DNA of 64,000 nucleotides from Escherichia phage ECO4: sequence record NC_054911.1; one strand, written 5' to 3'. Shown here piece by piece: positions 5,934-53,998 of this stretch. Within the stretch, counting starts at the first letter, position 1, and every line of letters begins with the position of its first letter. The position numbers were made by a program, and so were the translations under genes. A model generated the notes under the pieces. The model saw only the letters and a program-made list of their open reading frames with translations. It did no database searches and had not been told where the DNA came from.

Positions 5934-6121
5934 TATTCTTCTACATGTTGTTTACGACCTTTCTTATCAATAAAGGTATATTCAACGAATGTTCCAATGT
6001 AGTCTTTATCTACATCATGTGGACTATTAATTGGACATTTAGTACGGCAAATGCGTTCCCATTGACGAATAATTTCCACTTTGTTTTTAGGATCAAACGG
6101 ATGTGGGTAATGTACTTTCAT
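5909..6121 (-). CDS. hypothetical protein, 70 aa
   Basis: ORF track. Confidence 0.4.
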   Translation of the reverse strand: MKVHYPHPFDPKNKVEIIRQWERICRTKCPINSPHDVDKDYIGTFVEYTFIDKKGRKQHVEEYCLKVTWL

Positions 6122-6572
6122 AATCCACCACTATTAAATCAATATCAGGAGTAAACATGTCGATTAATTTAGAAACCTTATCCCAATCGCCGCCAGCAAT
6201 ACCACAACCTATGCGTGGAATGTAAATTACTGGTTTAAACAAAAGGGTTTCTGCCTGTAGATTTAATTCTATCATGCAGTTTACTAAAGCACCATAATCA
6301 AGATTAGGACCTGGTTCGTATTGCGTGTACAAGTTATAACATATGCCAAAACCATTAGGTTTATGTTTAAAAACAATAGACATATCGCCTAATTTATCAC
6401 GAGAACCGTACTCAGTAGTGGTTTTATCTATTTCTAAAATTTTGGGATAGGCTCTTGCTAATTGACCCGCTACACCTGAACCCATAGTATGAAAACAATT
6501 GCACCCGTGCGCAATAATATTACCTTGAAGAAATAGGGCGACAATATCGCCCTTGATATATTTTACAATCAT
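6093..6572 (-). CDS. macro-domain protein (ADP-ribose binding/processing fold), 159 aa
   Basis: Motifs KGDIV...GNIIAHGCNCFHTMGSGVAGQL and IPRIGCGIAGGDW resemble macro-domain signatures; ATG at 6570-6572. Confidence 0.6.
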   Translation of the reverse strand: MIVKYIKGDIVALFLQGNIIAHGCNCFHTMGSGVAGQLARAYPKILEIDKTTTEYGSRDKLGDMSIVFKHKPNGFGICYNLYTQYEPGPNLDYGALVNCMIELNLQAETLLFKPVIYIPRIGCGIAGGDWDKVSKLIDMFTPDIDLIVVDYESTLPTSV

Positions 6573-10607: not shown

Positions 10608-11024
10608 TTAAATGTAAATATTTTTGCCGTAATACTTGTACCAGTGTGGCTTCATTAAAATTTTTTCATCGAGTCGTTGTTGACTCAATTTAATAGCTGA
10701 TTTGCATGGATTATAATCATTTTTCCATTCTGCTGGAATATCGCTGATGTCAGGAACTTCAGTATCTTTTATACTAAACCCGCGTTTTAAGCATTCCGTT
10801 ATAATGTCTGATTGACGCTTTCGCAAAAATTCTAACTTATCGTAAAAGAACGTAACATGACCAGAACCTAAAATAAACTCGGAAGATATTTTAAAATCTT
10901 TAACCCGCTTACCATTTGCCACATGTTTACGAACTATACCAAAAACACGTGGCAATTCACGGTATTCTGCGATTAAATGCTGATCAGCAAGTTCAGATAC
11001 TAAAGTCAAATTAATACGAGTCAT
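10608..11024 (-). CDS. denV: endonuclease V (pyrimidine-dimer DNA glycosylase)
   Basis: 138 aa; [17 protein letters not shown]... matches T4 DenV as recalled. Confidence 0.9.
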
Positions 11025-14527: not shown

Positions 14528-14557
14528 ATTATATCATGCTATTTAAGAGATGTAAAC
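14528..14557 (-). promoter_or_regulatory. T4-type early promoter (-35 GTTTAC, 18-nt spacer, -10 TATAAT)
   Basis: Read directly; overlaps the 3' end of the upstream ORF. Confidence 0.5.
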
Positions 14558-15062
14558 TATTTTTAATTTTACAAATTCGTTCAGCTTCTTCAACAGCGGC
14601 AGTGATAATGCTTTTAGCTATAGGAGTACTAATACTAGTAGCTTTTACACTTAACACGATTTCTTTATCTTTACCAGGCCAACCCCACGATTTTTCACCA
14701 TGAGTGCCTTTAATTACAGCAGACACCTCAAGTGAGCATCCATTATCACATGTTTTTACATTAACAACCCAAGTGTCACTTTTCTCAACCGGTTTATCCC
14801 AGTAAATATTGAGAATACGCGGGACATCAAATTTAGCAGGGCAAATCTTAACCGTAAGACCTTCGCTTTCTAGCCAATTAATAAGAGGACGTTCATACAT
14901 GCGGCGATGTGGGCTTTGAACTCGACAAGCCTTGTACCCATTGCTTGCGGCTTCACTAAGCTCTTCTAATACCTGCTTTTGCATTATTGATAAGATACCA
15001 TCAAAAGATTTTTCGGAAGTTTCATTCAGTTCGGTATAAAGAGACATAACAGTTTTCCTCAA
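14529..15062 (-). CDS. hypothetical protein (177 aa from TTG, or 172 aa from ATG at 15047)
   Basis: ORF track. Confidence 0.5.
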   Translation of the reverse strand: MRKTVMSLYTELNETSEKSFDGILSIMQKQVLEELSEAASNGYKACRVQSPHRRMYERPLINWLESEGLTVKICPAKFDVPRILNIYWDKPVEKSDTWVVNVKTCDNGCSLEVSAVIKGTHGEKSWGWPGKDKEIVLSVKATSISTPIAKSIITAAVEEAERICKIKNSLHLLNSMI

Positions 15063-15604: not shown

Positions 15605-15745
15605 AATGTTATTTGATTTGTTTAGCAGACCAAATGCGGTCTTTAATAATTTTTTGGATGTCTTCAACATACTCTAGGTCATGAGCATGTGGGTTATCTT
15701 TAAAGCTATGAGCACGAGCTAGCTTTTGGCCTTCAGTTTTGATTA

Positions 15746-16084
15746 CTAAAAGCTCTTTAAGGATAGCTTCATATTTGGAGATAATTCCTTTAACGATATT
15801 TTTTTTTCTTGTGCGACTTTAGGATCTGCTTTAGGAGCAGGTTTACCCGAAGCCTTTGCAAAAGCAGCGCCAGTAGCAACTAAACTTTTCCAGGCCATAC
15901 TAACTGCATTTCCCGTAAATCCTTCCGCTTTCATGTCGCGTGCGAACTGAAATCGCGATTCATCAGAAGCATCTTTGTAAGAATATTTACCCGCTGCAAT
16001 GGCTGCTTTTGCGACAGCTTGAATTTCGGTGCTAGATGCTTCATTTAACACCGCTTCATTTAAAAATTGAGTATATGATTTCAT
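15746..16084 (-). CDS. internal-protein-like protein with capsid-targeting-sequence-like N-terminus, 112 aa
   Basis: N-terminus MKSYTQFLNEA resembles the IP leader MKTYQEF; Ala/Lys-rich; own late promoter and SD. Confidence 0.55.
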   Translation of the reverse strand: MKSYTQFLNEAVLNEASSTEIQAVAKAAIAAGKYSYKDASDESRFQFARDMKAEGFTGNAVSMAWKSLVATGAAFAKASGKPAPKADPKVAQEKKISLKELSPNMKLSLKSF

Positions 16085-16834: not shown

Positions 16835-16910
16835 TGGTCGAGGCAGTAGGGATCGAACCTACGACCCAGGACTTAGAAGGTCCTTGCTCTTCCTTCTGAG
16901 CTATGCCTCG
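16835..16910 (-). tRNA. tRNA-Arg (anticodon TCT), CCA encoded
   Basis: Manual cloverleaf fold of the reverse complement; anticodon loop CTTCTAA. Confidence 0.8.
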
Positions 16911-16914
16911 TATT

Positions 16915-16989
16915 TGGCGGACGTGATAGGATTCGAACCTATAACCAATCACTTAACAGGCGATCGCTCTGCCATTGAGCTACACATCC
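16915..16989 (-). tRNA. tRNA-Asn (anticodon GTT), CCA encoded
   Basis: Manual fold; anticodon loop CTGTTAA; T-loop TTCGAAT. Confidence 0.65.
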
Positions 16990-16993
16990 AAAT

Positions 16994-17080
16994 TGGTGGG
17001 GAGTGATGGAGTCGAACCACCCGAGTCGCAATGACAATGGATTTACAGTCCACACCGCTACCTCTACGGGATAACTCCCC
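16994..17080 (-). tRNA. tRNA-Tyr (anticodon GTA), type II with long variable arm, CCA encoded
   Basis: Manual fold; anticodon loop CTGTAAA. Confidence 0.65.
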
Positions 17081-17089
17081 AAATTAATT

Positions 17090-17164
17090 TGGTGGCCCTG
17101 GGTGGAATTGAACCACCATCTGGCGATTATGAGTCGCTTGCTTGAACCTTCCAGCTACAGGGCC
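17090..17164 (-). tRNA. tRNA with CAT anticodon (Met, or Ile reading AUA after anticodon modification)
   Basis: Manual fold; anticodon loop CTCATAA; one A-C mismatch in the anticodon stem. Confidence 0.7.
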
Positions 17165-17165
17165 T

Positions 17166-17241
17166 TGGTGCTGATTGACGGAATCGAACCGCCGACCTTC
17201 TCATTACAAGTGAGTTGCTCTACCTACTGAGCTAAATCAGC
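17166..17241 (-). tRNA. tRNA-Thr (anticodon TGT), CCA encoded
   Basis: Manual fold; anticodon loop CTTGTAA. Confidence 0.8.
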
Positions 17242-17246
17242 AAAAC

Positions 17247-17336
17247 TGGCGGAGGCGATAGGATTTGAACCTATGAGTCGCCGGAGCGACTGCCGGTTTT
17301 CAAGACCGGTGCATTAAACCACTCTGCCACGCCTCC
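17247..17336 (-). tRNA. tRNA-Ser (anticodon TGA), type II, CCA encoded
   Basis: Manual fold; anticodon loop CTTGAAA; long variable arm. Confidence 0.8.
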
Positions 17337-17338
17337 AG

Positions 17339-17412
17339 TCTCCGCGGCAGGATTTGAACCTACGACATTCTGCTCCCAAAGCAGACGCTCTACCAAACTG
17401 AGCTACACGGAG
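17339..17412 (-). tRNA. tRNA-Pro (anticodon TGG), CCA not encoded
   Basis: Manual fold; anticodon loop TTTGGGA. Confidence 0.8.
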
Positions 17413-17422
17413 TAAATTAAAT

Positions 17423-17496
<74 letters not shown>

Positions 17497-17501
17497 AAAT
17501 T

Positions 17502-17588
17502 TGGTGCGAGAAGTGGGACTCGAACCCACAAGGAAATCATTCCGCAGCATTTTAAGTGCTGTGCCTTTACCAATTTGACCATTCTCGC
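17502..17588 (-). tRNA. tRNA-Leu (anticodon TAA), type II, CCA encoded
   Basis: Manual fold; anticodon loop CTTAAAA. Confidence 0.8.
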
Positions 17589-17589
17589 G

Positions 17590-17662
17590 CTGGGAATAAA
17601 GGACTCGAACCTTTGCATCCTGGAATCAAAATCCAGTGCCTTACCAACTTGGCTAATTCCCA
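17590..17662 (-). tRNA. tRNA-Gln (anticodon TTG), CCA not fully encoded
   Basis: Manual fold; anticodon loop TTTTGAT. Confidence 0.8.
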
Positions 17663-18696: not shown

Positions 18697-18981
18697 TTAC
18701 AAAAGATTTTTAGCAATAATTTTAAGCTGAGCTACTGAAATATGCTTGGCTTTAAACAAAGCAGTTTCTTCAGCAGGTGAGATAACGATTGTAGCACCAT
18801 CTTTCTTAGCGGACCATCCATCACCCAGGTAAACAGTACCTTTGACTTCTTCGCCATCAACCAGGCTAATCATCGGTTTACCTTCACGTCCTTTGTTTGC
18901 TTTAATAACTTCAGAAGTAAGGGTCGCTTCAGTCAAAGTAGAAGCGTTAGTCGTTGAAGTGAATTCTTGATAAGTTTTCAT
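18697..18981 (-). CDS. ipI: internal protein I (packaged head protein)
   Basis: 94 aa; capsid-targeting leader MKTYQEF; position between the tRNA array and 57B as in T4. Confidence 0.8.
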   Translation of the reverse strand: MKTYQEFTSTTNASTLTEATLTSEVIKANKGREGKPMISLVDGEEVKGTVYLGDGWSAKKDGATIVISPAEETALFKAKHISVAQLKIIAKNLL

Positions 18982-47282: not shown

Positions 47283-47283
<1 letters not shown>

Positions 47284-47531
47284 TGGAAGGTTTAATTGAA
47301 GCTATTAAATCAAACGACCTCGTAGCCGCTCGTAAATTATTTGCTGAAGCCATGGCTGCAAGAACGATTGATTTAATTAAAGAAGAAAAAATCGCTATCG
47401 CTCGTAATTTCTTAATTGAAGGTGAAGAACCTGAAGACGAGGATGAAGATGATGACGAAGATGGTGATGATAAAGACGACAAAAAAGACAAAGACTCTGA
47501 CGAAGATGACGAAGACGAGGATGATGAATAA
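47283..47531 (+). CDS. 67: gp67 prohead core protein with poly-acidic C-terminus
   Basis: 82 aa; Asp/Glu-rich tail. Confidence 0.8.
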
Positions 47532-52388: not shown

Positions 52389-52410
52389 AAAGGGACCTTT
52401 CGGTCCCTTT
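52389..52410. terminator. bidirectional intrinsic terminator (AAAGGGACC-TTTC-GGTCCCTTT) between gene 24 and rnlB
   Basis: 9-bp stem flanked by A-run and T-run. Confidence 0.6.
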
Positions 52411-52414
52411 TTAT

Positions 52415-53419
52415 TTAGCTCACCAACTCAATCCAAGCCGGACGAAGTACATCTTGTACCATTTTAACTAATTCCTTTTTAATCAAAGAAGGATTATCTG
52501 CTTGAGTTAGAGTAATACCTTCACGAGAAGTTTCTTCCAAAATATCTTGGACAGTTAGCCCCATCACCTTTCCAAAATCCTTTGGACCAATTTCGCCAAT
52601 TTTAGAAATAACGTTATTTACTCGGTTCAGTGTAACGTAACAAGCTAAAATTCCCACCAATTTGTTATCAGCTTCTGACAATTCAACTTTAGCTTTAATA
52701 GGCTTATCAGACTTTTTCTTTTCACTAAATTTAGAATTCTTGCATTTGATGGCTACACGATTGCGATTAGGCAGCCAAGAAGGCTAACAAGGTTTCAATA
52801 CATATCCTTCAGCGGTAAATACTTCGCCTTTGGCTTCGGCATTCCAAACGCATTTATTTGCATCAACTAATCCAGCATGGTCTACTGTAAAATTATAATC
52901 TTGGACGACAGAATCTAAATCATTTGGCAATTTAATAAGCTCTTCAAATTTACCGCGACCTAAAAGTGGAGCCATTTTAAATTTAAATGTATTGCAGAAT
53001 GATTCCATCATATAATCATCGACATAAGTCACGTCACCACTTTCTGTAGTGACAATAATGTCAAATACATAAAAATCTTTATCACCATAATCAACATTCT
53101 TCTGAATGCCAGGTCCAGCGAATTCGCCAAAAACTTGATAAGTCACAACAGCTGAAGTTTCCATAATATCTTGTACTGCTTTAATGGAATCAGCGTAATT
53201 CTTTAGAATAATTTCATACCCAAAGAAATCTTCAGCAGGAAGAATCGGTCCAGTACGTTTAGCGCAAGTTACTTTATCACGCTCAATAATCAATGAGAAA
53301 TTTGTGCCGTGAATCTTTTCACGAGCTACCCATTCGCCGCCAGTCAATCCCAAGCTATAAAGTTTTTCAATAAATTTAGAGTTGTAATGATTTTCAAGAC
53401 TGCTATACTTTTTAAACAT
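52415..53419 (-). pseudogene. rnlB: RNA ligase 2 (Rnl2) reading frame interrupted by a single in-frame amber codon (TAG at 52784-52786)
   Basis: N-terminal 211 codons with ligase motif I (KIHGTN), then TAG, then 122 in-frame codons; total 334 equals T4 Rnl2 length. Confidence 0.7.
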
Positions 53420-53909: not shown

Positions 53910-53977
53910 GTTATCGAGTTGGTGCCATTATATACATCATTTTCTGATTGTGTTTTGTGTGCTTTCAAAATGAAGAA

Positions 53978-53993
53978 AGGGGCCGAAGCCCCT
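53978..53993 (-). terminator. intrinsic terminator hairpin (AGGGGC-CGAA-GCCCCT) downstream of hoc
   Basis: Same hairpin sequence as 13872-13887; T-rich tail on the minus strand. Confidence 0.5.
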
Positions 53994-53998
53994 TTCGA

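Follow-up and report, generated by a model that had tools for sequence, protein, structure and literature searches.

Introduction

RNA ligase 2 of bacteriophage T4 (Rnl2; gene rnlB, formerly 24.1; PDB 2HVQ and 1S68) is a protein of 334 positions in which the lysine of nucleotidyltransferase motif I is K35, motif IV contains E204 and motif V contains K225 and K227. The two motif V lysines are key residues for adenylylation of the ligase, and the shortest active truncation of Rnl2 that is cited comprises residues 1-249 (Rnl2tr; PMC3149579). This laboratory enzyme, a C-terminally truncated N-terminal fragment, retains motif V and performs steps 1 and 3 (PMC3149579; PMC3884662). A transposon map of T4 recovered insertions in rnlB at 84 of 84 TA sites and classed the gene as non-essential; RnlB of phage Bas37 is likewise tolerant of insertions (bioRxiv 10.1101/2025.11.20.689424, supplementary files 7 and 8), and T4 mobD.1 is also non-essential (bioRxiv 10.1101/2025.11.20.689424). 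The name rnlB in the literature refers mostly to the RnlA-RnlB toxin-antitoxin system of E. coli, not to the phage gene.

Truncation of T4 proteins by nonsense codons has a long history in the classical T4 ambers, each of which is one sense-to-UAG change, suppressible by supD, supE, and supF, that was selected in an essential gene. An internal stop is an ordinary kind of event, and nonsense alleles are common in phage genes that can be dispensed with.

Here we analyze a stretch of 64,000 nucleotides from Escherichia phage ECO4 (NC_054911.1; hereafter the window), in which the T4-type rnlB gene is interrupted by a single amber codon. The interrupted gene is no new kind of element; it is probably a recent, tolerated null allele that arose by conversion of the Tyr212 codon from TAT to TAG.

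Genomic Context of rnlB

The window derives from a Tequatrovirus, and its gene order, genes 23 and 24 followed on the minus strand by rnlB, 24.2, 24.3, and hoc, is the same from gene 24 onward as that of T4. By megablast, the phage records closest to the window are Shigella phage SfPhi01, with 99.4% identity across 1.2 kb, and Escherichia phage AR1, with 98.1% across 24 kb; for many structural proteins, identity to the AR1 counterpart is 100%. Megablast against E. coli genomes and plasmids gave no match, and an exact look-up of the Hoc protein likewise found no record, so that no independent copy of the genome was available for comparison. A short minus-strand unit closes with rnlB. Between rnlB and gene 24 there is a two-way terminator-like hairpin (52389-52410), in which a stem of 9 pairs leads into a T run on both strands, and a second terminator-like hairpin is located 3′ of hoc (53975-53996). 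With no gene between rnlB and the presumed terminator, a polar effect of the stop codon on other genes is unlikely.

Several further differences from relatives were seen outside rnlB. The tk.4 homologue (6108-6572) is only 55% identical to that of AR1, compared with 93-100% for its neighbours, a local mosaic replacement. Several in-frame indels in a stretch rich in GAT, GAA, and GAC distinguish gene 67, which encodes a prohead core protein, from its AR1 counterpart in the region of the acidic C-terminal tail (47283-47530). Three intact minus-strand ORFs at 10608-11024, 14529-15047, and 18697-18981 (138, 172, and 94 residues) lack a counterpart in AR1 and stand where AR1 has other genes or none, and AR1 e.7, ar1_142, and ar1_146 are without a match in the window; the three ORFs are a case of accessory-gene turnover. 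In SfPhi01, hoc (record L001, 3200-4201) is annotated as two overlapping coding sequences, which suggests a frameshift or an error in another dispensable gene, one for head decoration.

Anatomy of the Interrupted Frame

Read on the minus strand, positions 53419 to 52415 give 211 sense codons, a TAG, 122 further sense codons whose translation ends in VLRPAWIELVS, and a terminal TAA, i.e., an rnlB frame (52415-53419) of 334 codons plus TAA that is broken at codon 212 by the amber at 52784-52786 (minus strand). This bears out the description given in a first-pass annotation, which had been made from the sequence alone and had further proposed that the two halves are collinear and together equal T4 Rnl2 in length. 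They do so: when position 212 is filled with an X, the two halves, joined into 334 residues, align with T4 RNA ligase 2 (PDB 2hvq) from residue 1 to residue 334 without a gap (E = 8e-224), and a match to a known protein over such a length cannot be chance. The alignment, which the same annotation had put forward as a check, sets the stop opposite the Tyr of VLKPC-Y-PSW in T4 Rnl2 and so identifies Tyr212 as the residue replaced by TAG. Apart from the stop, the window and T4 proteins differ by S93T, R217P, and G219R.

The landmarks of the enzyme family are in place on both sides of the stop. Motif I (KIHGTN, residues 35-40, with K35 as the KxxG lysine) is that of an Rnl2-family nucleotidyltransferase, and motifs IV (E204) and V (K225, K227) are in register with T4 Rnl2 at the DNA level, motif V being beyond the stop and hence untranslated; the numbering agrees with the literature, in which E204 falls within EGYVLKP and K225 and K227 within AIKCK. 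Pfam RNA_ligase (PF09414) matches the N-terminal half (E = 4.5e-22; profile positions 2-157 of 171), and Pfam T4_Rnl2_C (PF18043) matches codons 213-334, all of them beyond the stop (E = 8.3e-25). A functional member of the Rnl2 family would be expected to have a single uninterrupted frame of ~334 codons, which the window rnlB lacks; on every sequence criterion save this one, the gene is the orthologue of T4 rnlB. The ORF listing accordingly divides the frame into an ORF of 211 residues (52784-53419) and one of 88 residues that begins at a TTG at 52681. The predicted truncated product of 211 residues (52787-53419, minus strand) extends from motif I (K35) to motif IV (E204) and is without motif V, whereas the untranslated remainder (52418-52783, minus strand; codons 213-334) holds K225 and K227 of motif V and the Rnl2 C-terminal domain in undecayed form.

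Origin of the Amber Codon

The base change that created the stop can be read directly by comparison with relatives. At nucleotide 636 of the gene, the window has G and each of 16 relatives read base by base (SfPhi01, AR1, four IMG/VR contigs, and ten contigs with an identical gp23) has T; on the plus strand, position 52784 is C in the window and A in the relatives. The difference is a third-position transversion that turns TAT into TAG, and the first-pass annotation was therefore right to diagnose a nonsense codon rather than a frameshift or deletion. Intact rnlB genes are the rule among relatives: the gene encodes 334 residues in all ten contigs with identical gp23, relatives that are ~96-98% identical, and 33 of 35 rnlB homologues in IMG/VR are intact (328-336 sense codons), with a sense codon for Tyr, Val, Thr, Ile, Asn, or Lys at position 212 in every one of the 33. 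The two other IMG/VR homologues, L035 (1501-2498) and L039 (1501-2485), come from T4-like genomes that are otherwise complete (162-172 kb) and are independent disruptions of the gene; their lesions are putative frameshifts in distant homologues (~52-62% identity), not nonsense codons as in the window.

The variant is private to the window, which is likewise a direct observation. Among 474 related phage records, none holds an exact copy of the 61 nt around the stop, the best having one mismatch; an exact 38-mer across the stop has no match in IMG/VR, in metagenome contigs, or in GTDB genome contigs; and the gene-position collection has no entry with the exact sequence of the 211-residue product. 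The window rnlB differs from that of SfPhi01 at 5 bases and from that of AR1 at 8 (99.1% identity to AR1 at the protein level), and 3′ of the stop only 2 differences from SfPhi01 are found, both at third codon positions. Such lack of decay means that the change is recent or that it is an error. Private changes in the lineage number 6 in 4 kb, of which 3 are in gene 24, whose protein is nevertheless 100% identical to that of AR1. Of all possible single-base changes in the window rnlB, 4.8% create a stop.

These same observations have to be weighed against the alternative that the TAG stems from a mistake in sequencing or in assembly of the consensus, the codon in the actual phage being TAT and its rnlB intact. 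A private variant with an undecayed downstream sequence, set in a 61-nt context whose remaining bases are the same as in the closest relatives, is precisely what such an error would look like. The rnlB change is, however, a substitution and not a homopolymer indel. We regard an error as unlikely, although it is the alternative that deserves the most serious attention, and the disruptions found elsewhere in the window, described below, bear on it in both directions.

Decoding of the Amber Codon

The frame remains open 3′ of the stop, as would be required if the TAG were read as sense by programmed read-through or through a change of code, the phage's own suppressor tRNA or a signal in the message giving both short and full-length products; the first-pass annotation had named a suppressor tRNA as one of its explanations. 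T4-type phages generally have their tRNA genes in one cluster. In the window, ARAGORN placed this cluster at 16835-17662 on the minus strand and identified ten tRNAs: Arg (anticodon tct), Asn (gtt), Tyr (gta), Met/Ile-type CAU (cat), Thr (tgt), Ser (tga), Pro (tgg), Gly (tcc), Leu (taa), and Gln (ttg). None of the ten tRNA genes in the 64-kb window has a CUA anticodon. One change in its anticodon would turn the tRNA-Tyr into a supF-type suppressor, but the anticodon is GUA, and the tRNA is, like those for Ser, Leu, and Gln, base-for-base the same as its counterpart in AR1, whose rnlB is intact. In view of the ten anticodons and of the identity of these four tRNAs with those of AR1, a phage suppressor tRNA is rejected for the 64-kb window. 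When compared with the cluster of AR1, that of the window has tRNA-Pro in place of the segD homing endonuclease gene and is without the tRNA-His of AR1, so that its content looks like a mosaic.

The use of TAG elsewhere in the window is equally conventional. With AR1 proteins as probes, rnlB alone among 93 genes of the window has a stop within the alignment, and six intact genes end normally in TAG, namely tk, trna.4, 5.1, 5.4, uvsY.-2, and the essential gene 15. A phage with a reassigned amber would be expected to encode a CUA tRNA, to have many in-frame TAGs, and to avoid TAG as a terminator; the window shows none of these features. With one in-frame stop in 93 genes of the window and six normal TAG terminators, genome-wide recoding of TAG is rejected. 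The scan for other in-frame TAGs, which the first-pass annotation had suggested for the complete genome, turned up rnlB only among these 93 genes.

Read-through at this one codon finds no more favor in its surroundings. Programmed read-through is recognized by conservation among relatives, both of the stop and of a stimulatory context or structure, whereas the stop in rnlB is shared with no relative, and its flanks are the same as those of relatives with TAT, which leaves no co-evolved context. No RNA structure that could stimulate read-through was found from just 5′ of the stop to ~95 nt 3′ of it, where folding was no better than that of shuffled sequences (z = 0.22). That the codon is programmed to be read as sense is accordingly scarcely credible, and the suppressor explanation offered at first pass is abandoned as far as a tRNA of the phage is concerned.

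Suppression by the host is a separate matter. A real mutation might be masked if the phage had been isolated or propagated on an E. coli strain with an amber suppressor, such as a supE, supF, or supD laboratory derivative of K-12, in which full-length Rnl2 is made. Many phage isolation hosts are derivatives of K-12, and the variety of residues at position 212 in homologues suggests that an enzyme with Gln, Ser, or Tyr inserted there would probably be active. On the other hand, nothing in the sequence supports this history, and viability does not call for it, since rnlB is dispensable. The base 3′ of the stop is C, which reportedly makes a poor context for amber suppression. Masking by a host suppressor is therefore quite improbable, and a recent null allele at Tyr212 remains the favored reading of the locus.

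Other Disrupted Genes in the Window

Three further genes of the window are broken by small indels relative to AR1. The AR1_101 homologue has gained one G at ~1530 and is represented by the minus-strand ORFs 1452-1811 and 1289-1540; mobD.1 (ORF 2033-2371) has lost one A from an A5 run at ~2063; and the AR1_137 homologue (phrog_2280; minus-strand gene 15612-16084) has gained two T in a T run at ~15799-15808. All three indels are private, with 413-467 relatives compared (those at ~1530 and ~2063 are absent from 413-439, the T expansion from 467), and the best matches differ by the indel alone. The AR1_101 homologue and mobD.1 are adjacent paralogues (27% identity) that both contain Pfam T4_y05I_N and T4_y05I_C and belong to phrog_1502, and in both of these y05I-like genes the indel is close to the junction of the two domains.

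The window thus contains four private gene-disrupting lesions, the rnlB amber and three frameshifts, and all four are in genes taken as non-essential, by a direct call for mobD.1 and rnlB and by assumption for the AR1_101 and AR1_137 homologues. About 34.6 kb (54% of the window) is occupied by genes that are essential in T4, and no lesion is found there. If lesions fell at random, the probability of this distribution would be ~0.044, a value that rests on four events and on general knowledge of which T4 genes are essential.

The three additional lesions also speak for a consensus error, in that they are private, small, and gene-breaking, and the two in A or T runs resemble platform error or homopolymer miscalls. 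Yet the ~35 kb of essential genes is free of disruption even though it has as many homopolymer runs (184 of at least 5 bases, vs. 146 in the non-essential part), all four lesions are confined to genes taken as dispensable, and two of the indels strike both members of one paralogue pair, which would be unlikely if errors were random. The distribution of lesions slightly favors real mutations over random errors, and on balance real mutations that have been filtered by viability are preferred to errors in the consensus.

If the mutations are real, a further question is whether the four private knock-outs were selected, either as an escape from a host defence that senses or needs these accessory proteins or as an adaptation to the host. 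A literature search found no relevant report of rnlB as a defence trigger or of a described rnlB amber. Selection of this kind is a faint prospect; were it to hold, Rnl2 and the y05I-like proteins would be pointed out as defence triggers or as proteins with costly functions.

Predicted Product and Its Probable Loss of Function

The product made from the interrupted gene ends at Cys211, past motif IV (E204) but short of motif V (K225, K227). In comparison with T4 Rnl2, it corresponds to residues 1-211 only. It shares with Rnl2tr the character of a C-terminally truncated N-terminal fragment but ends 14 residues before K225, a residue that Rnl2tr keeps; since the 1-211 fragment loses part of the nucleotidyltransferase fold, the properties of Rnl2tr are not transferable to it. 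We infer loss of activity from the lack of motif V, of part of the fold, and of the C-terminal domain, and the fragment should be capable neither of ligase-AMP formation nor of the ATP-dependent reaction by which Rnl2 enzymes join 3′-OH and 5′-PO4 ends at nicks in duplex RNA. The proposal at first pass of a natural rnlB null that expresses a truncated adenylyltransferase fragment consequently divides in two: the null is the best explanation of the locus, but the fragment, without motif V and with the PF09414 match cut at position 157 of 171, would be unusable as an adenylyltransferase. Re-initiation to give a useful C-terminal piece was considered and set aside: the first in-frame start is the TTG at 52681, and a separate C-terminal domain would not restore motif V; inspection by eye revealed no ribosome-binding site 5′ of this TTG.

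The sequence of events that we propose for the null allele would begin with the recent change of one base in the Tyr212 codon, from TAT to TAG, in a Tequatrovirus ~98% identical to AR1. Translation would then halt after residue 211, with motifs I-IV kept and motif V and the C-terminal domain lost, and the product, unable to form ligase-AMP or to seal nicks, would make the gene a null allele. The null would be tolerated because Rnl2 is dispensable in laboratory growth and rnlB is the last gene before the terminator, a condition in which we infer that it carries no fitness cost. The rnlB amber would be one among several private knock-outs in genes taken as dispensable. The contrast with the classical T4 ambers is instructive: those were recovered from essential genes, whereas the window amber affects a gene that can be dispensed with, in an isolate that is wild-type-like, and shows no sign of deliberate selection or of a suppressor.

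Implications

For annotation, rnlB of the window is best recorded as a pseudogene or null allele with an internal stop, and is neither two genes nor evidence of recoding; significance beyond annotation is small. That several accessory genes carry private disruptions is also a reason to check the reads behind this assembly. If the mutation is real, the phage would be further evidence that rnlB is dispensable, and as a natural rnlB-minus phage it could be compared with its close relatives for the role of Rnl2 in infection.
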